A stretch of 64,000 bases of DNA, from assembly GCA_030426125.1 (NCBI GenBank), contig JAUHZB010000002.1, forward strand, positions 3,633 to 67,632. Reading direction: 5' to 3'. The DNA comes from a bacterium (lineage in GTDB: Bacteria; Patescibacteriota; Saccharimonadia; Saccharimonadales; AWTP1-31). The translations under genes were made by a program, and so were the position numbers. The notes under the pieces were generated by a model. It searched no databases, was not told the origin of the DNA, and saw only the letters and a program-made list of their open reading frames with translations. Position 1 is the stretch's first letter; each line of letters opens with the position of its first letter. Below are positions 3,751-10,683 of the stretch, in pieces.

Positions 3751-4293
3751 TTAAGATGTGTGGTTATATAGGTTTTGATCAGAAGGCATTAGTTGAATTA
3801 TGGCGTTTCTCAGAGCTTCCTGAAGGCTTATTTCCCTGCTAATATTTCCACCAGTGTAGCGCGACCATGTGTCGCGGTTATCATCAGGTAGTTGGAAATG
3901 GTCGTCATAATATTTCATTATCTTCATGTGACTTTCACCGGCTTTCATCCTTTTGGAAACTACAGCGGGTAGCAGTAAACCGCTGGAATATCCATAATAT
4001 ATTTGATCTTTATCGGATATTACCACTGCCCAAGCCTCTTCGAATAAGTGGCCATAACGTTCAACAAGTCCGCTTTCTATACCAACATAGTAGTTGGCAT
4101 TGCCGATAGCTTGGCACTCTTTGGCTCTGTTTAGCGCCCCCTGGTAGGTTTCTTTGTCAAACGGTGCTTCGGGGACAAGAGACTTTGCGTTATGAGATGC
4201 TACATCAAGACTGGAGGGTTTTAAGATTTCGGTGAATATATCACCAACCACTTTTATCTTTTTCTGGTTCTTGGTGCCAATTAGTATTTTCAT
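3751..4293 (-). CDS. inosine/xanthosine triphosphatase (YjjX-like non-canonical NTPase)
   Basis: MKILIGTKNQKKI...LVPEAPFDKETYQGALNRA...YYVGIESGL parallels E. coli YjjX (ATTNPAKI...GVPEQPFGSEETRAGARNR...VAIEAGI). Confidence 0.65.
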   Translation of the reverse strand: MKILIGTKNQKKIKVVGDIFTEILKPSSLDVASHNAKSLVPEAPFDKETYQGALNRAKECQAIGNANYYVGIESGLVERYGHLFEEAWAVVISDKDQIYYGYSSGLLLPAVVSKRMKAGESHMKIMKYYDDHFQLPDDNRDTWSRYTGGNISREISLQEALRNAIIQLMPSDQNLYNHTS

Positions 4294-4324: not shown

Positions 4325-6028
4325 TTAAGACTTACTAATAACTTTTCTGAGTTTCGGTAAGGCTGCCGACATTGCTACTGTACTTAGTATGGCTGTGGCG
4401 AACAATACTGTTATGGCCGATGAATCACCTGTCTCAGCTAGGTCGGTTGGTGCTACGGCAAGGCCAACTGGGTCAGATATTTCTCCGGTGTCTGGGTCAA
4501 GATCGAGTGGTCCGTTATCTACGATTGTGTATATTACTTCCAGCGCTGGGTCACCCTGATAGGTGGTTTCATTTATTGTAACGTCATCAAGGTTGCTGTA
4601 CTGCTCAGTGTTTGGATTGTATTTCCTGGCAATAACTTCCTCAGCTTTTAGGTTAGTAATGAAAGTTAAGGTAACTTCATTAGATTCGTTGGTAGTGTCG
4701 AAGCAGAAATCTACTAGGCCCATTGGGTATTGATAGCCAGCATCCTGAACAGCTAGAGCTACCTCTTTGACTGCAGTGCTACAAGTAATTGTGGTGCCGT
4801 CTGGTGTGGTAAGTAGTACCCGATTACCGTTTTCTGAATTTGGGAAGTTGGCGGTGTTTGAAGAGTTTTGGCTATCATCTGAAGTTGCCGATATATAGCC
4901 ATACGCTTCATTTGCAGCAATTGCTTCAGTTCCATCGCTGTTTAGATCTGCAGATATCCAGTCGTTCTCTTCATCATATTCTGCGCTTGGAGTTTCAACG
5001 CTCCAGGTTTCACCAAAATCATCGGATAAGAATAGACCACCGTTGTAACTGACAGCAGATATAACTTCTCCATCATCAGATATTGCGGTATCACTCCAAA
5101 AATTTAATTCCTCCGGATTTGGTGTTACTTCTGTATAGCTGTCGCCACCATCGTTTGAGGCGTAGACATTTTCTCCACCTGCATAATCTTCATGAGAGGC
5201 CACTATTATGCTTTGTCCATCTGCAGAAAGGTCATGGTAGAAATAATAAGCTTCATCGGCTGGGTCAAAAGGTGAAACGTCTTCCCAGCTACTACCACCG
5301 TTTTCTGATTTGTGTAAGGTATCGCCGTCATCTACGCCATTTTCACCACCAACTAGAATTGTTTCACCGTCGTCAGATATGGAGACCGATTTTAGGTCCC
5401 ATATATCTTCAATAGTACTCGAAGTCCAGCTGTTTCCACCGTTACTTGATATGTAGAGTTCACTATCGTCATTTTCTACTGCTGCTATTGTTGTTCCATC
5501 TCCAGAGACAACTACCTTGTCCCAGTCATCTGATTCGGCAGCTGCAGGCGTTATATCTTGCCATGTTCCTCCAGCATTAGCCGACATGAATAATTTACCA
5601 ACAGAACCTTCTGATTCTATATAATTAAGGCTATCATCACTCGATGCCACCATAACTTGGCCATTATTTGATACGTCAACATTTGTCCAATCGTGCCAGA
5701 TGCCGTCTTCTATATCTTCGGCAACATTTTCCCAGTTCAGGCCTGAATCAGCTGAAATATACAGAGGGCTTTCTTCGATCGGTTCACTTTCACCGCCGTT
5801 TATTACAGCTAGCATCATATGATTTCCCGTAGCCGAAATTGCAGCCGATACGTAATCGCCTCCTAGGCGATCAATGTCTTCTGGTCTTTGCCACTGATAT
5901 TCATTAGATGTTGCATATACAGTTGAGAAAATATCTGGCCTGGCTGCTAATACCATTGCGCCTACCGCGAGACTTGTTAATGTAACTTTAGATCTACTAG
6001 TTTTCTTAGAAACAGTTTTTGTTGCCAC
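4325..6028 (-). CDS. secreted BNR/Asp-box repeat surface protein with LAETG cell-wall sorting signal
   Basis: GTG start preceded by AAGGGG. N-terminal signal/anchor. Six S-x-D/N-x-G-x-x-W/Y Asp-boxes (SADSGLNW, SANAGGTW, SSNGGNSW, SENGGSSW, SNDGGDSY, SDDFGETW). The C-terminus has LAETG (nt 4427-4441), then a hydrophobic helix and a KLRKVISKS tail. Confidence 0.75.
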   Translation of the reverse strand: MATKTVSKKTSRSKVTLTSLAVGAMVLAARPDIFSTVYATSNEYQWQRPEDIDRLGGDYVSAAISATGNHMMLAVINGGESEPIEESPLYISADSGLNWENVAEDIEDGIWHDWTNVDVSNNGQVMVASSDDSLNYIESEGSVGKLFMSANAGGTWQDITPAAAESDDWDKVVVSGDGTTIAAVENDDSELYISSNGGNSWTSSTIEDIWDLKSVSISDDGETILVGGENGVDDGDTLHKSENGGSSWEDVSPFDPADEAYYFYHDLSADGQSIIVASHEDYAGGENVYASNDGGDSYTEVTPNPEELNFWSDTAISDDGEVISAVSYNGGLFLSDDFGETWSVETPSAEYDEENDWISADLNSDGTEAIAANEAYGYISATSDDSQNSSNTANFPNSENGNRVLLTTPDGTTITCSTAVKEVALAVQDAGYQYPMGLVDFCFDTTNESNEVTLTFITNLKAEEVIARKYNPNTEQYSNLDDVTINETTYQGDPALEVIYTIVDNGPLDLDPDTGEISDPVGLAVAPTDLAETGDSSAITVLFATAILSTVAMSAALPKLRKVISKS

Positions 6029-6102: not shown

Positions 6103-7188
6103 CTAAGATTGTCTTAATTGGTCCTGCCTATAAAACAGAGTCGACAGACGCATCCGATAACTTCCATTACTTCTTCTGAGATAGTCAAAAGATGGGTCTA
6201 GCTGTTCCTTTGCGGTAGCCATTAAAGTTACATCACTGGGAATTATTTCCCCTTGAGCTACTTTGCCTATCGCGGCACAAATTTCCAGTTGGCGTGGTTT
6301 TTGTATTTGAGCTATTTGATGCGGCTGGAAATGTTCTAGTAATTCCAAAGCTATCAATAGTCTATCTACTTGCTTATAGGGTGTGGCGTTGGACAATATT
6401 TTAAGATCTTCTCTAGTGTAGACAACTCCCGGATAACGCTGATGCACTAGGCCGTGTGGTTTAGATATAGTCGATAGTAGCCCGATTATATTATCAGCAC
6501 TGACATCTACGGACTGGTCTGGTGTTTTAGTAGTCAGATCAGCATAGGCAGTGTCTAGTACAATTTTGTGGCCGGCTTCAACGAACTGGTCCCACTCTTC
6601 TTGGTCGTGCCAGTTGCCATCTATAGCGCTGGGGTTGGATACGAACCAAACTCGGCCATCTAGCGGTTCACCGGCTTCAGATAGTGATGGCGCCATGTCT
6701 ATACGATCTTTTGTTAGACCAACAGACTCTGCCTGACTGACGTAGTCGTGGTAATCACCTTTAATTATGCCGAGTCTGGTCATTTCTCCTTTGCCAACCC
6801 ATCCAGCCATTAGACGCAAGATCCCATCGGTTGCTCCGTGGGCTGTTGGGTATCGATGCTCAAAAGTAGATAATCCTGGGAACAGCGCTTCATTGCGATT
6901 TGTGATTCGCTCAATGATTGGTTCGTGTAGCGCTAAAAACTCTACTTTACCCGCAGTAGTAGGTAGCGTTAGATCTCTAGCAATACTAAAGCCACCTTCT
7001 TCCAGTAGTTCGCGGGCCTCTGCTTCCGAAGATAGTGGATTAAAATGCTTGGAATAATGTAAGCCTTCTAGAACTTCAGTGACTTCATTAAGCTGATAGC
7101 TAAGGAATGTTGGATTTAATTCACTAGGGTCGACTACTAATTCTGGTTCCTGCTCTGGACTACCCATATCTTTAACTGGCTGCCCCAC
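6103..7188 (-). CDS. class I/II (fold-type I) PLP-dependent aminotransferase-like protein
   Basis: Motifs in canonical order: FVSNPSAIDG (NPxNPTG-like), VLDTAYADL (D.aY) and LSTISKPHGL (S.SK PLP-lysine). The start is uncertain (GTG 7188 or ATG 7167). Confidence 0.6.
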   Translation of the reverse strand: MGQPVKDMGSPEQEPELVVDPSELNPTFLSYQLNEVTEVLEGLHYSKHFNPLSSEAEARELLEEGGFSIARDLTLPTTAGKVEFLALHEPIIERITNRNEALFPGLSTFEHRYPTAHGATDGILRLMAGWVGKGEMTRLGIIKGDYHDYVSQAESVGLTKDRIDMAPSLSEAGEPLDGRVWFVSNPSAIDGNWHDQEEWDQFVEAGHKIVLDTAYADLTTKTPDQSVDVSADNIIGLLSTISKPHGLVHQRYPGVVYTREDLKILSNATPYKQVDRLLIALELLEHFQPHQIAQIQKPRQLEICAAIGKVAQGEIIPSDVTLMATAKEQLDPSFDYLRRSNGSYRMRLSTLFYRQDQLRQS

Positions 7189-7212
7189 TTAGATTATTGC
7201 TTCTAGAGAGTC

Positions 7213-7881
7213 TCATAGATAGCTCCTTTTACCGGGGGCCTTCTTTCGTTTTATAGTGCTGGTCTCTTTCTTGCAGGTTTTACATCTGCCACATTCAATT
7301 GGCTTACCATCAGCGTAGTGAGGGGTTCGACAGGACCAAGTTAGAATTGCTAGATCTTCCGGTATAGTTTTGTATACTTCGTGCTTGAACAAGTCTTTTT
7401 GCGGGTATTCTTTTATTCTGGCGCTATGGTCTTCCTCTTCGGGATGAAAGGCGTTATGGACTCGTTTCGCACGCATTACCGATTCGGTGACACCAAGCTC
7501 AAAGTCGGTGGCTGTGGCTGCTATGACCACTTTAGTGATACTGTCGTCACGGGAAGTCATGTAACCAGAAATAAAGCTAATTATTTCAACATCGTAGATA
7601 AATTTTTTGCCGAAGTGAGGCAAAGCAATAGTTGATTCAGTATAGGAGAAGGGATGGTCTACATGCTTCTTCATATATTCAAGGATTTGTTTAATAGCCA
7701 TTGCTTCAGCTCTCCAACGAGCTTCCAGGTTTTTTATATGGATATGGTGAACCATTACTTCACCGTATTGATCGGGATTGTGCAATACATGCCAGAGGGC
7801 GGCGGTTGAATCAATGCCACCAGAAAACATTACTAAGGTGCGTTTTTTATCAGTCTTTTTAACTAACCTTTTTTTAGCCAT
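7213..7881 (-). CDS. QueC-like PP-loop ATP pyrophosphatase
   Basis: N-terminal SGGIDST PP-loop. The C-terminal LTWSCRTPHYADGKPIECGRCKTCKK matches the QueC zinc cluster (TWSCY...CGRCDSC). The central region diverges from QueC. Overlaps the upstream gene by 8 nt. Confidence 0.6.
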   Translation of the reverse strand: MAKKRLVKKTDKKRTLVMFSGGIDSTAALWHVLHNPDQYGEVMVHHIHIKNLEARWRAEAMAIKQILEYMKKHVDHPFSYTESTIALPHFGKKFIYDVEIISFISGYMTSRDDSITKVVIAATATDFELGVTESVMRAKRVHNAFHPEEEDHSARIKEYPQKDLFKHEVYKTIPEDLAILTWSCRTPHYADGKPIECGRCKTCKKETSTIKRKKAPGKRSYL

Positions 7882-8521
7882 TAACTTCCCTCTTATTTAT
7901 AGCTAGATTATACAGGAGTTGATCAGATAGTGTTCCGTTTTCAAAATAATCTAAAACTAGTTGGCCGCAGTTCTGGGCAACGTAGCTAAGGCTTTGCTCG
8001 TGGTTTGAAGTTTCAGTTTCTAGGGCGTATACAGCGCCATCAAGAATAGCATCGGTTGGTGAATCTAGCACATCTTCAGTAGCTGAATAAAAACAAAGTA
8101 CCCTCTCAAACAAAGACCGATCTACTCCGTTCATATAGCTTGCCAACAAATCTGATGAGCTAACAAGGTTTGGTAGTCGTTGACTGGTCCTAGGGTTATG
8201 GAAATTATAGGGATCAATTTTTGTGGAGGCTATTGCTATTCTATTTATACTACCTGGGGTATTAATGAGGTGACTTAGTGCTGTCTTTCCGCCGTCACTT
8301 AGCCCCAGAAGGTCTACTGTAACTTCCTCTGAATGGTTTTCTATCTCGGCGCTAGTTTCTTCAAATCTTTCTTGGTAGTCACTGCCAGTAGGGTCAATGC
8401 TTTTAGGGATGATTGTTAGGTTTGGCCTGGACCATAACTTAGGTATTTGGTCCTGTATTTCAGGTGTGCCATCAAAAGTTTTGAATAAGTATACTAGCCT
8501 CTCGTTCGTCCGGTCAGTCAT
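7874..8521 (-). CDS. alpha/beta-hydrolase-like protein (putative serine hydrolase)
   Basis: 215 aa with a nucleophile-elbow-like GLSDGG after a beta-strand (VTVDLLGLSDGGKTAL). Asp and His candidates lie downstream. Weak call. Confidence 0.35.
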   Translation of the reverse strand: MTDRTNERLVYLFKTFDGTPEIQDQIPKLWSRPNLTIIPKSIDPTGSDYQERFEETSAEIENHSEEVTVDLLGLSDGGKTALSHLINTPGSINRIAIASTKIDPYNFHNPRTSQRLPNLVSSSDLLASYMNGVDRSLFERVLCFYSATEDVLDSPTDAILDGAVYALETETSNHEQSLSYVAQNCGQLVLDYFENGTLSDQLLYNLAINKREVNG

Positions 8522-8584: not shown

Positions 8585-8749
8585 CTACTTTCGAATACTA
8601 AGAATTAGTTCGATAAGAGCCATTACTAAGATTCCTGTGCCAAGACCAACAAATAGACCAGCTAGTAGGTTTCCGGTTAAGAATCCGATACCCATTCCTA
8701 TTAGCAATCCGGCTGGTACAAAAGCTCCACTAGGGCTGTTTTTCTTCAT
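8585..8749 (-). CDS. glycine-zipper micro membrane protein (54 aa), missed by ORF track
   Basis: My own translation gives MKKNSPSGAFVPAGLLIGMGIGFLTGNLLAGLFVGLGTGILVMALIELILSIRK. It is a paralogue of the 51-aa ORF at 45989..46144. The + strand ORF 8565..8768 looks like an antisense artefact. Confidence 0.5.
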   Translation of the reverse strand: MKKNSPSGAFVPAGLLIGMGIGFLTGNLLAGLFVGLGTGILVMALIELILSIRK

Positions 8750-8816: not shown

Positions 8817-9485
8817 TTATATAACCGATTGGATGGTTGGAGTGACATCGGTTCTAAGGATTACTCTATTTTCTCTAGTTATCCCCCGGTGTGGCTGTTG
8901 TTCGATAACACTACATAGATTGTTCACTATAACTGCCTCTCCTGGCCCGTATACTATTTCTTCAGACTCTATAGGGAAACTAGGGCTGTCAAAATCTGGG
9001 AGGTGGTATCTTGAGCCCTCGGTAACTGGATACTCTGTTGCAATCTGCAGAATGGCTGGGAATTCTGATAGATTCACTAACATGCGTAGATTACGGTCTG
9101 CATCGATATGCCATCTTCCAGTAGCGCCAAGCACAAAAGAATTTTCTATCATATATGTATCAATATCCGAGACCTCTCGCTTAGCAGCTGCTGAAGCAAC
9201 CTGCATACTTTCTCGAAGATATTGTTCAGTAGATTTGCTGGTTCTTACTATGTTGCTGTTTGGCAATAATGCTGAAATTTCGCTATCGGATAGAGTTTGG
9301 CTATTATCTTCTCCTGGATGGTGGGTTACATTGGCCATTAGGTTAATAGCTGGACCTATTGTGAAGTTTAATAGACGATCATACTGTTCAAAGAGTGGTA
9401 ATAGGCTATTGCCTAACTCAATAGATCTTTCGCTATCCAGCACCTGACCGATAGGACGTATTTTATTTGGTGCGTCGATTTTCAT
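8817..9485 (-). CDS. hypothetical protein with HxD...H (cupin / Fe(II)-2OG-oxygenase-like) motif
   Basis: ATG at 9485 (MKIDAPNK). The track start at 9503 is TTG. RWHIDAD followed about 75 aa later by QQPHRG fits a facial-triad pattern. No other recognisable motif. Confidence 0.3.
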   Translation of the reverse strand: MKIDAPNKIRPIGQVLDSERSIELGNSLLPLFEQYDRLLNFTIGPAINLMANVTHHPGEDNSQTLSDSEISALLPNSNIVRTSKSTEQYLRESMQVASAAAKREVSDIDTYMIENSFVLGATGRWHIDADRNLRMLVNLSEFPAILQIATEYPVTEGSRYHLPDFDSPSFPIESEEIVYGPGEAVIVNNLCSVIEQQPHRGITRENRVILRTDVTPTIQSVI

Positions 9486-9659
9486 GACTATATTAAAACA
9501 CAATTTATATAAATTATCAATACTTGAATCAAGCTATGGGCATCACTAATATGGGTGTGCAGTCTGCACTTTAGCTACGGTTAATATGTAGATACATTCT
9601 TAGCGAACTGACAACATTAGCTTGGCTATTACTTTTAGGTTGTAAATTGCACCTGGATT

Positions 9660-10040
9660 TTAGAATACATCCAAAACAATCAGAGTACACAGTAGTGCAG
9701 CGATAGTATAAAAAGCCCACCATCGCTCAGGCTTGCTTGGTGATATCGCGTTAGTTATAGTGCCAAGTCCAAAGAAAGCTACCATGATCCAAAGAACACC
9801 ATTCACTAGTCCGCTGGAATTAGCATTATAGTTTGCTGTCGACGCCATGACCACTATTGTCATGAAGAATGAATACCCAATAACAGCAATAGCGCTGATA
9901 ATCCGGTATTTCTTCGGCAAAGTCCCTTTGTGTTTACCACCATATGCAATGTGACCTAACGGTGCTCCCAATGCTAACTTTGCCTGGAATACAACTTGCA
10001 CGGCAAGTAGTCCGAGTAGTAACCACCCTGCACTGTCCAT
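9660..10040 (-). CDS. small integral membrane protein (4 TM)
   Basis: 126 aa, four hydrophobic helices. Lies 4 nt downstream of the preceding gene. Confidence 0.55.
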   Translation of the reverse strand: MDSAGWLLLGLLAVQVVFQAKLALGAPLGHIAYGGKHKGTLPKKYRIISAIAVIGYSFFMTIVVMASTANYNANSSGLVNGVLWIMVAFFGLGTITNAISPSKPERWWAFYTIAALLCTLIVLDVF

Positions 10041-10044
10041 TGGG

Positions 10045-10683
10045 TTAGGCTTTTACTCCCTTGAATAGCAAGTAGCCAATCATCCAGAATTCGCCAATGG
10101 TTGCGGGCATTGGTAGTGCTTCAGTAAGTGTAGTTTGCTCCGGCAGTAAGATACCTGTAAAGGTAGATAGAACGTAACCCACCCCACCAGCTACCAAGAA
10201 CCAAACCATGACTTTTGGCATGTTGTATTTGTGCGCCATATAGGCCATAGGTAGTAACCAGAGGCCAAAGAACAAAGTGCCAACCTGCCATAGTGTTTCA
10301 TGTGCTTCAAATAACGTTTGAACAGTATCGCTAGCGCCACTTGCTAGAGCTGTGTTGAGTGCCATTAGCCAAAAAGCTGATGCAGCTAATATAACGATGG
10401 CGTTCACCATACCGAAGGCAGCGATTAGCCCGGCAGTAAAGCTGTCTTTTTTCTTAAATAGTTTATAGAACCATACCGCTGCAAGTGCTTGGAATCCAAC
10501 GATGAGTACTTCTGCGGCTATGCCGAAACGAGCAAGTGACTCGTCGTTTACAAGATTAGCAGTTGTTTGTGCTGCATCCCCAGCGACGAATAACTGATCT
10601 CTAGCGAATAAAAATGCGAACACCCCCATTACTGCTAGACCTAAGTAAAATAGCCCTGTCCATTTTGCTGTTGTTAGTTTCAT
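10045..10683 (-). CDS. DUF4386-like membrane protein
   Basis: 212 aa. An N-terminus like WTGLFYLGLAVMGVFAFLF...AAQTTANL...FGIAAE is typical of the family as I remember it. Confidence 0.5.
   Translation of the reverse strand: MKLTTAKWTGLFYLGLAVMGVFAFLFARDQLFVAGDAAQTTANLVNDESLARFGIAAEVLIVGFQALAAVWFYKLFKKKDSFTAGLIAAFGMVNAIVILAASAFWLMALNTALASGASDTVQTLFEAHETLWQVGTLFFGLWLLPMAYMAHKYNMPKVMVWFLVAGGVGYVLSTFTGILLPEQTTLTEALPMPATIGEFWMIGYLLFKGVKA

Follow-up and report, generated by a model that had tools for sequence, protein, structure and literature searches.

An orphan PP-loop ATP pyrophosphatase family related to QueC: gene contexts in Saccharibacteria and phages and a proposed function

A 64-kb stretch of DNA (64,000 nucleotides, referred to as a whole as the window) from a member of the Saccharibacteria carries a gene whose product resembles QueC and which lies between genes for a hydrolase and a pyridoxal phosphate (PLP)-dependent enzyme. 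The three genes, listed below, raise the question of what a QueC-like protein does in such company. An earlier note, made from the DNA letters alone, had read them as an adenylation-amination-hydrolysis module acting on a nucleobase or metabolite. According to our analysis of sequences and gene neighbourhoods, the QueC-like protein is a member of a large orphan family that is distinct from QueC and that recurs next to surface-protein genes and within phage structural modules, two features absent from the earlier note.

7874 to 8521, minus strand: H215, an open reading frame (ORF) of 215 amino acids, predicted minimal alpha/beta-hydrolase-fold protein
7213 to 7881, minus strand: PP222, an ORF of 222 amino acids, predicted PP-loop ATP pyrophosphatase of an orphan QueC-like family
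6103 to 7188, minus strand: AT361, an ORF of 361 amino acids, predicted fold-type-I PLP-dependent enzyme of the HisC/CobD type

PP222 and its relationship to QueC

Judged by its sequence, PP222 is a PP-loop ATP pyrophosphatase related to, yet distinct from, QueC. Both landmarks pointed out in the earlier note, the SGGIDST PP-loop (residues 20-26) and the C-terminal Cys cluster within LTWSCRTPHYADGKPIECGRCKTC (residues 180-203), were found in the protein. Across 30 homologues S20, G21, G22, D24 and S25 of the loop are invariant, as are the four cysteines spaced C184-x12-C197-xx-C200-xx-C203. Because of this invariance the motifs are more than chance resemblances. By analogy with QueC, the four cysteines would bind zinc. 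The N- and C-terminal tails of PP222 are basic, and the protein has an isoelectric point (pI) of 9.3.

Libby et al. (2026, PMC13329287), who defined the canonical QueC signature as SGGxDS, YxQxHxxE, VPxRN, YPDC and C-x8-CxxCxxC, found Y35, R99 and Y131 of the E. coli enzyme to be essential. Alignment with the E. coli and B. subtilis enzymes revealed that these substrate motifs are replaced in PP222, in agreement with the earlier remark that its central region is unlike QueC. The QueC residues Y35/Q37/H39 correspond to L52/A54/W56, with R55 and E59 retained; the VPxRN position reads F-x-Y-D-V-E, in which D97 is invariant; and YPDC is missing, with the T-D-F of QueC ETDFSGYPDC retained (T123-D126). 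In PP222 and its relatives the QueC signature is reduced to SGGxDS, the R/E of the second motif and C-x12-CxxCxxC.

The scores of the QueC equivalogs of NCBIfam are far below their cut-offs: NF008317 gives PP222 14.3 bits (cut-off 378) and TIGR00364 gives 13.5 bits (cut-off 150.3). The broader Pfam domain PF06508 scores 27.6 bits against a threshold of 22, chiefly via the N-terminal 57 residues, and the 190-position 'QueC' model of PADLOC gives a weak full-length match (31 bits, E 5e-8). When a profile of 30 PP222-family sequences was compared with the PDB, QueC was the sole family matched (B. subtilis QueC, 3bl5, full-length, E 6e-5). The AlphaFold2 model of PP222 (mean predicted local distance difference test, pLDDT, 87) gave a different list in a Foldseek search, namely NcsA, the ATP pyrophosphatase domain of GMP synthetase, TtuA, TilS and NadE at template modelling (TM) scores of 0.4-0.5, with QueC outside the top 50 matches.

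No que, tgt or folE genes were found in the window, as the earlier note had stated for queD, queE, folE and tgt. A tblastn search with E. coli queries only (QueA, Tgt, QueD, QueE, QueF and FolE) found none of them, either in the window or among 28 related loci, the best E-value in the window being 0.26 or worse, the PP-loop gene itself apart. The motifs, the score thresholds and these missing pathway genes together rule out PP222 as an authentic QueC of the preQ0 pathway, so the earlier view that it is not a queuosine enzyme holds. A Qat or type IV CBASS (cyclic oligonucleotide-based antiphage signalling system) defence system is likewise ruled out, by the score of the QatC model (NF041925, 14.7 bits against a cut-off of 280) and by PADLOC, which recognized no Qat system among the five window proteins scanned.

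An orphan PP-loop family

Sequence comparison places PP222 in a large orphan family of PP-loop ATP pyrophosphatases, the one typified by gp16 of Mycobacterium phage Muddy and PHROG 1550. An exhaustive search with a hidden Markov model (HMM) returned 1,451 representatives, defined as clusters at 50% identity, at E<=1e-3; tightening the cut-off to E<=1e-10 left 708. Most members are stand-alone proteins of about 200 amino acids, and at this level of clustering the entire Saccharibacteria clade is covered by a single representative. An HMM of the family from which the window sequence had been left out gave 220 bits for PP222, 148 for gp015 of the Saccharomonospora phage PIS136 and 98 for Muddy gp16, against 21 for E. 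coli QueC. PHROG 1550 takes in both PP222 (69.6 bits, E 4e-19) and Muddy gp16.

The family signature, whose columns are conserved across 44-64 diverse members, comprises SGGxDS, (I/V)HVHH-x4-N-x-E-x-R-x2-AE, F-YSES, D97, G-x-T-x2-D126, YP-x5-K166, WSCRxP and CGxCxxC. PP222 displays it as SGGIDS, HHIHxxNxExRxxAE, D97, D126, K166, WSCRxP and CGxCKTC. Fusions were seen in two of 64 family representatives, with an HlyC acyltransferase domain in one case and a methyltransferase in the other.

The family has been touched upon before. Hutinet et al. (2019) set aside the 'singleton QueC-like' protein of Muddy as probably another subfamily of N-type ATP pyrophosphatases. A 2026 survey of PF06508 gives no account of the PP222 clade and makes no mention of Saccharibacteria, and we found no literature tying Saccharibacteria to a PP222-type protein. 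In public databases the family is annotated as '7-cyano-7-deazaguanine synthase' or 'QueC-like queuosine biosynthesis'. Within Saccharibacteria the gene is uncommon, having been found in about 15 GTDB species representatives. No match to the family was obtained on plasmids, and the neighbourhoods of its genes in Chloroflexia were uninformative.

Contexts outside Saccharibacteria

In phages, family genes reside among the genes for virion structure. The largest set consists of 17 phage metagenome loci (L092, positions 9399-10088, and 16 similar ones), in which the PP-loop gene lies between the portal and major capsid genes in the order terminase, portal, small basic protein, PP-loop protein, acidic protein of 84 amino acids, Zn-ribbon protein, protein of 266 amino acids, major capsid. 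The gene for Muddy gp16 (L154, NC_022054, 7001-7552) is flanked by those for the major tail protein and the tail assembly chaperones, and the family gene of phage DS6A lies to the left of the terminase. In PIS136 (L155, 6001-7436) the last base of the PP-loop gene is the first base of the next gene, which is annotated as cyanophycin synthetase (domain) and whose product looks ATP-grasp-like by sequence. We considered whether the small proteins beside the phage copies might be sulfur carriers of the ThiS/TtuB kind and rejected this, as they lack a C-terminal Gly-Gly and are basic or acidic helical proteins; DS6A gp1 as a methyltransferase-like partner was also ruled out.

The metagenome loci, the 17 phage loci among them, were drawn by a degenerate DNA pattern for WSCRxP...CGxCxxC, which yielded 120 loci, 91 of them encoding a family member. 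In about 10 of the remaining loci a gene labelled c6 precedes the PP-loop gene, and in about 10 others the PP-loop gene is followed by genes for GT28-like and GT4 glycosyltransferases together with a short-chain dehydrogenase/reductase. Three apparent 'conserved neighbours' of high-GC loci (c14, c16 and c18) were discarded as antisense ORF artefacts. Betaproteobacterial loci resemble the glycosyltransferase group in that the PP-loop gene stands beside, or is fused to, GT28-like and GT4 glycosyltransferase genes. In Aestuariispira insulae (L022, 5444-8666) two tandem genes each encode an N-terminal class-I methyltransferase and a C-terminal PP-loop domain; the flanks of this locus encode a rubrerythrin-like protein, an APH-type kinase, a saccharopine dehydrogenase and Hint-domain proteins. 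An alphaproteobacterial metagenome-assembled genome (MAG) has three QueC-like paralogues (L027, 7923-15250), two of which bear an extra C-terminal CxxC...CxxC extension; a radical S-adenosylmethionine (SAM) gene and a gene for a MauE-like membrane protein are nearby, and the whole resembles a biosynthetic cluster.

Layout of the window locus

The three minus-strand genes are linked as described in the earlier note. The stop of H215 and the start of PP222 share 8 nt, ATGGCTAA, at 7874-7881, which can be read directly in the sequence, and a Shine-Dalgarno motif, GAGGGA, lies upstream of this overlap. The 24-nt gap reported between PP222 and AT361 stands only if AT361 starts at the GTG at 7188; with the ATG at 7167 the gap is 45 nt. 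The latter (MGSPEQ...) is probably the real start of AT361, because MGSPE is where the N-termini of its homologues (MSSxE) align and because the protein has 354 amino acids in an independent gene call. No terminator-like sites were found between H215, PP222 and AT361 or between AT361 and the gene that follows. Together with overlaps of 1 nt and 4 nt in relatives (L004), the coupled starts and stops bear out an operon-like unit. The remaining genes of the neighbourhood are as follows.

8585 to 8749, minus strand: glycine-zipper-like hydrophobic membrane peptide of 54 amino acids, ORF immediately 5' of H215
4325 to 6028, minus strand: BNR567, secreted BNR/Asp-box (Sortilin-Vps10-like) beta-propeller
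3751 to 4293, minus strand: DUF84/NTPase_I-T gene (inosine/xanthosine triphosphatase type; Pfam 105 bits), just downstream of BNR567

From the 54-residue peptide through H215, PP222 and AT361 to BNR567 all genes have one orientation. The peptide ORF is called as a gene on an independent contig too and possibly heads the unit, in which its membership is uncertain. BNR567 is very acidic (pI 4.05) and matches Sortilin-Vps10 of Pfam (53 bits) and choice_anch_U of NCBIfam (38 bits). It carries the choice-of-anchor U domain and, at the C-terminus, an LAETG sorting signal, a transmembrane helix and a basic tail.

Gene neighbourhoods in Saccharibacteria

To this window we compared 5 contigs with exact homologues and 23 genome loci. 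The loci fall into three arrangements, which track the identity of their PP-loop protein to that of the window.

Type A, PP-loop protein 66-75% identical to the window: H215-like, PP-loop, AT361-like, BNR
Type C, 57-64% identical: PP-loop, BNR; the pair is in tandem duplicate in L012-L014, with several copies in one MAG
Type B, 52-63% identical: pilin-like, PP-loop, C2 (plus BNR in L001 and L010)

The type B pattern was borne out by two further loci. The trio of hydrolase, PP-loop and PLP-enzyme genes is syntenic in the closest Saccharibacteria subclade and not beyond it. In sister clades a methyltransferase-like protein, or nothing, takes the place of AT361 and H215. Since the trio occurs in type A loci only and distant AT361 homologues have no PP-loop neighbours, it is a subclade-specific elaboration rather than a conserved functional core, and the proposal of the trio as the functional unit is in all likelihood wrong. 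The association is kept even in L006, where H215, PP-loop and AT361 genes are all retained although the AT361 gene is inverted.

The most persistent neighbour of the PP-loop gene in Saccharibacteria is the BNR protein, whose gene lies downstream of it in 11 related loci. Signal peptides, Asp-box propellers and conserved sorting signals (LAETG, LADTG or xPNTG) are common to BNR567 and its homologues. In the tandem PP-loop/BNR pairs (L012, 4127-10241; L013, 8001-14135; L014, whole locus) a gene of the sulfatase/phosphodiesterase family is located in between. One MAG, JAGOUG01, has at least 4 PP-loop copies on three contigs (L006, L014 and L015), and the orthology of the duplicated pairs across species showed no clear pattern. 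Genes for pilin-like proteins (type IV, N_methyl motif) are found directly 5' of the PP-loop operon in most type B and several type A loci (L002, 5351-5986; L016; L018; L033, 6303-6950; L008; L009). The C2 partner is class-I methyltransferase-like: 4/4 proteins tested matched Methyltransf_25/11/12 at E ~1e-4, and C2 is homologous to the partner c6 of the metagenome loci (hhalign probability 84%, E 7e-6).

The partner enzymes AT361 and H215

We are confident that AT361 is, as its model and motifs predict, a fold-type-I PLP enzyme of the HisC/CobD type with an intact PLP site. The full motif set that had been noticed, including the Lys of SKPHG, is present and near-invariant in 12 homologues: TISKPHG (K243), SNPSAIDGN, LDTAYADL and R251, with D212, Y215 and K243 invariant, N185 and S242 in at least 90% and R251 in 10/12. 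The family is small, only 12 members being found among 5.8 billion clusters, and AT361 has no Pfam match and an NCBIfam score of 25 bits against a cut-off of 510. A Foldseek search with its AlphaFold2 model (pLDDT 90.6) placed HisC (1uu2, E 3e-12), CobD, YbdL and 1-aminocyclopropane-1-carboxylate (ACC) synthase on top, with E-values from 3e-12 to 1e-9; a profile search of the PDB gave HisC at E 3e-6, aligned via NPxxxG, DxAY, SK and R. As the nearest folds include transaminases, a decarboxylase (CobD, threonine-phosphate decarboxylase), ACC synthase and C-S lyases, the fold does not tell the reaction type. An apparent homology of AT361 to C2, suggested by a MAFFT alignment of 'GAT' and 'DG' motifs, was ruled out (hhalign probability 1.4%). 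The gene next after one distant AT361 relative (L159) encodes a radical SAM enzyme.

H215 would be, by sequence, a minimal alpha/beta hydrolase with an intact Ser/His pair, which agrees with the serine hydrolase proposed earlier. Its nucleophile elbow is GLSDGG (S75). Across 9 homologues neither S75 nor H174 varies, and 9/9 sequences have an acidic residue at about 148-149. Proteins of this type have about 195-215 amino acids. H215 itself has no Pfam or NCBIfam match; one homologue (P0135) carries PF00561 and another (P0134) is named esterase by JGI. The H215 profile produced weak matches to alpha/beta hydrolases of the esterase kind in the PDB, the best being 7c4d (E 5.5e-4) across the elbow.

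Proposed function and alternatives

PP-loop enzymes, such as QueC, NadE, GMPS, AsnB, LarE and TilS, adenylate a carboxyl or carbonyl group, and a nitrogen or sulfur nucleophile then displaces AMP. By this chemistry, the carboxyl or carbonyl adenylated by PP222 would belong to a substrate that is not 7-carboxy-7-deazaguanine (CDG), and a nitrogen nucleophile would displace AMP to give an amide or amidine. In the subclade of the window AT361 would make or tailor an amine or amino-acid-like partner and H215 would remove or transfer an ester or acyl group, both being lineage-specific tailoring add-ons. The product would be delivered or linked to a macromolecule of the cell surface or virion (a glycan or a protein) and not to nucleic acid. 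Such a destination is likely because of the recurrent neighbours: methyltransferase-like proteins, glycosyltransferases, sortase-anchored BNR proteins, pilin-like proteins and phage head and tail genes. We assign a probability of about 0.55 to this reading of PP222 as an ATP-dependent carboxyl/carbonyl-activating ligase for a non-deazaguanine substrate, probably surface- or virion-linked, with AT361 and H215 as lineage-specific add-ons.

A number of observations weigh against this reading. The link to surface macromolecules is drawn from gene neighbourhood alone, and the partner sets are so heterogeneous that subfamilies possibly have different substrates. The basic tails of PP222 would suit nucleic-acid binding, too. 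The glycine-rich SAM loop of C2/c6 is degenerate (LGAT), so these partners are possibly no methyltransferases. Some PP-loop loci (type B) have no BNR gene, and distant AT361 homologues (28-35% identity; L158-L160) have no PP-loop neighbour. Finally, because the genomes are compact and the syntenic loci belong to fairly close relatives, the conservation may in part reflect inherited gene order.

The most interesting rival is direct protein modification. In this case PP222 would be a Cap9/QatC-like ligase that activates a small carboxylate or a protein carboxyl and conjugates it to a partner encoded next door, in Saccharibacteria the BNR adhesin, a pilin-like protein, H215 or AT361, and in phages a protein of the tail or capsid. 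Modification of the N-termini of adjoining partner proteins is now known for QueC-family enzymes, and the full-length PADLOC match, the duplication of PP-loop and BNR genes as pairs with several copies per MAG, the late virion modules (at the Muddy major tail protein; from portal to capsid in the 17 loci), the HlyC protein acyltransferase fusion and the setting of a basic enzyme beside very acidic neighbours all speak for it. However, BNR and pilin-like proteins have their N-termini cleaved on export, which makes a Cap9-like reaction at that end unlikely for them; no shared target motif was found; the deazaguanine-binding residues of QueC are kept by Cap9 and not by the PP222 family; and chemistry on small molecules or glycans accounts at least equally well for the contexts with glycosyltransferases and methyltransferases. 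On the whole we consider direct protein modification rather unlikely. We would call improbable the module proposed in the earlier note, in which the three enzymes form a self-contained adenylation-amination-hydrolysis unit whose substrate is a nucleobase, a compound related to 7-deazaguanine or some soluble metabolite, for salvage in an auxotrophic epibiont. The tight coupling of three genes with all three catalytic sites intact is what one would expect of it, the second gene downstream encodes a DUF84 inosine/xanthosine triphosphatase, and QueC is the nearest solved relative by sequence profile. Yet a nucleobase substrate is left unsupported because the substrate-binding (CDG-binding) motifs of QueC are absent. 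Against the module it also counts that que, tgt and folE are missing from the window and the 28 related loci, that the trio is confined to one subclade with AT361 relatives outside it having no PP-loop gene, and that the contexts of the family elsewhere are structural or surface-related and not those of nucleotide metabolism.

We consider an RNA target, or mere adjacency of the genes, less likely. The best structural matches of PP222 are the tRNA thiolases NcsA and TtuA, together with TilS, its tails are basic, and the four cysteines could hold zinc or an Fe-S cluster as in TtuA/NcsA, all of which would suit a PP-loop enzyme of the TilS, TtcA, TtuA or NcsA kind that modifies tRNA or rRNA beside functionally unrelated neighbours. 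The TM-scores of these matches are only 0.4-0.5, though, and the protein has only about 200 amino acids and no recognizable RNA-binding domain; its rarity in Saccharibacteria and its multiple copies in one MAG are unlike a housekeeping tRNA enzyme; the conserved operon partners and the methyltransferase fusion favour a shared pathway. An RNA-modifying role is accordingly hard to credit. Harder still to accept is that the three enzymes are unrelated and simply lie packed together in a compact genome, which has passed them on as one block. The syntenic loci are indeed from close relatives (PP222 66-75% identical), AT361 homologues exist elsewhere without PP-loop genes, and most PP-loop loci have neither AT361 nor H215. 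But stop/start overlaps occur both here and in L004, no terminator-like site separates the genes, the type of accessory partner cleanly tracks the PP-loop phylogeny, and L006 keeps the trio despite the inversion of AT361.

The QueC label is almost certainly wrong for the PP222 family and would mislead metabolic reconstruction of Saccharibacteria and of phages. The presence of a member in the tail module of Muddy, a phage in therapeutic use, provides a genetically tractable test system. If surface or virion modification is true, it would extend the recent finding that QueC-fold enzymes are re-used for protein modification and would bear on how ultrasmall epibionts build their host-contact surfaces. 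Saccharibacteria epibionts and actinobacteriophages both attach to Actinobacteria. A bolder and distinctly speculative idea is that the orphan family constitutes unrecognised ATP-dependent modifiers of exposed structural macromolecules, which would decorate virion proteins, sortase-anchored adhesins or their glycans with an amide-linked group; the epibionts and the phages would then tune their attachment surfaces by the same chemistry, with the PLP enzyme and hydrolase of the window making a lineage-specific group.

Comparison with known systems

AT361 shares with HisC/CobD the fold (Foldseek E 3e-12, TM 0.56-0.62) as well as the Schiff-base Lys, the pyridine-N Asp, the stacking Tyr, the Asn and an Arg 8 residues past the Lys, but it differs by a sequence identity of 12-17% and an N-terminal region of its own of about 100 amino acids.

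For PP222 the nearest well-known enzyme is QueC, with which it has in common the SGGxDS PP-loop, a length of about 220 amino acids, the C-terminal four-Cys CxxCxxC cluster and the R and E of YxQRHxxE (R55 and E59). It departs from QueC in that Y35, R99 (VPxRN) and Y131 (YPDC), all essential in the E. coli enzyme, are missing, in the spacing of its cysteines (C-x12-C versus C-x8-C) and in that the linkage to queD/queE was not found at its locus. The protein deazaguanylases Cap9 of type IV CBASS and QatC of QatABCD are, like PP222, members of the QueC superfamily outside queuosine operons with a candidate partner gene adjoining; in contrast to their systems, the PP222 locus has no CD-NTase, Cap10/TGT, QatA, QatB or QatD nearby, and Cap9 retains the QueC substrate motifs whereas the PP222 family does not.

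N-acetyl-sugar amidotransferases of the WbpG/PseA/PtmG type occur, together with a partner methyltransferase, in nonulosonic-acid pathways. They offer an analogy only: these PP-loop enzymes, too, are found beside glycosyltransferases or a methyltransferase and act on surface glycans, but they have 300-400 amino acids and another order of Cys motifs, and no sequence or structural match to them was seen for PP222. They make up cluster 5 of PF06508 and are counted in the QueC superfamily, QueC itself being cluster 1.

The closest counterparts of PP222 are Muddy gp16 and the other phage 'singleton QueC-like' proteins, which belong to the same HMM family and PHROG and share the signature HH..N.E.R..E, WxCRRP and C..C..C, even though the identity between Muddy gp16 and PP222 is only about 28%. 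The phage copies lie in virion structural modules, whereas PP222 is chromosomal in Saccharibacteria and stands beside PLP-enzyme, hydrolase and BNR genes.

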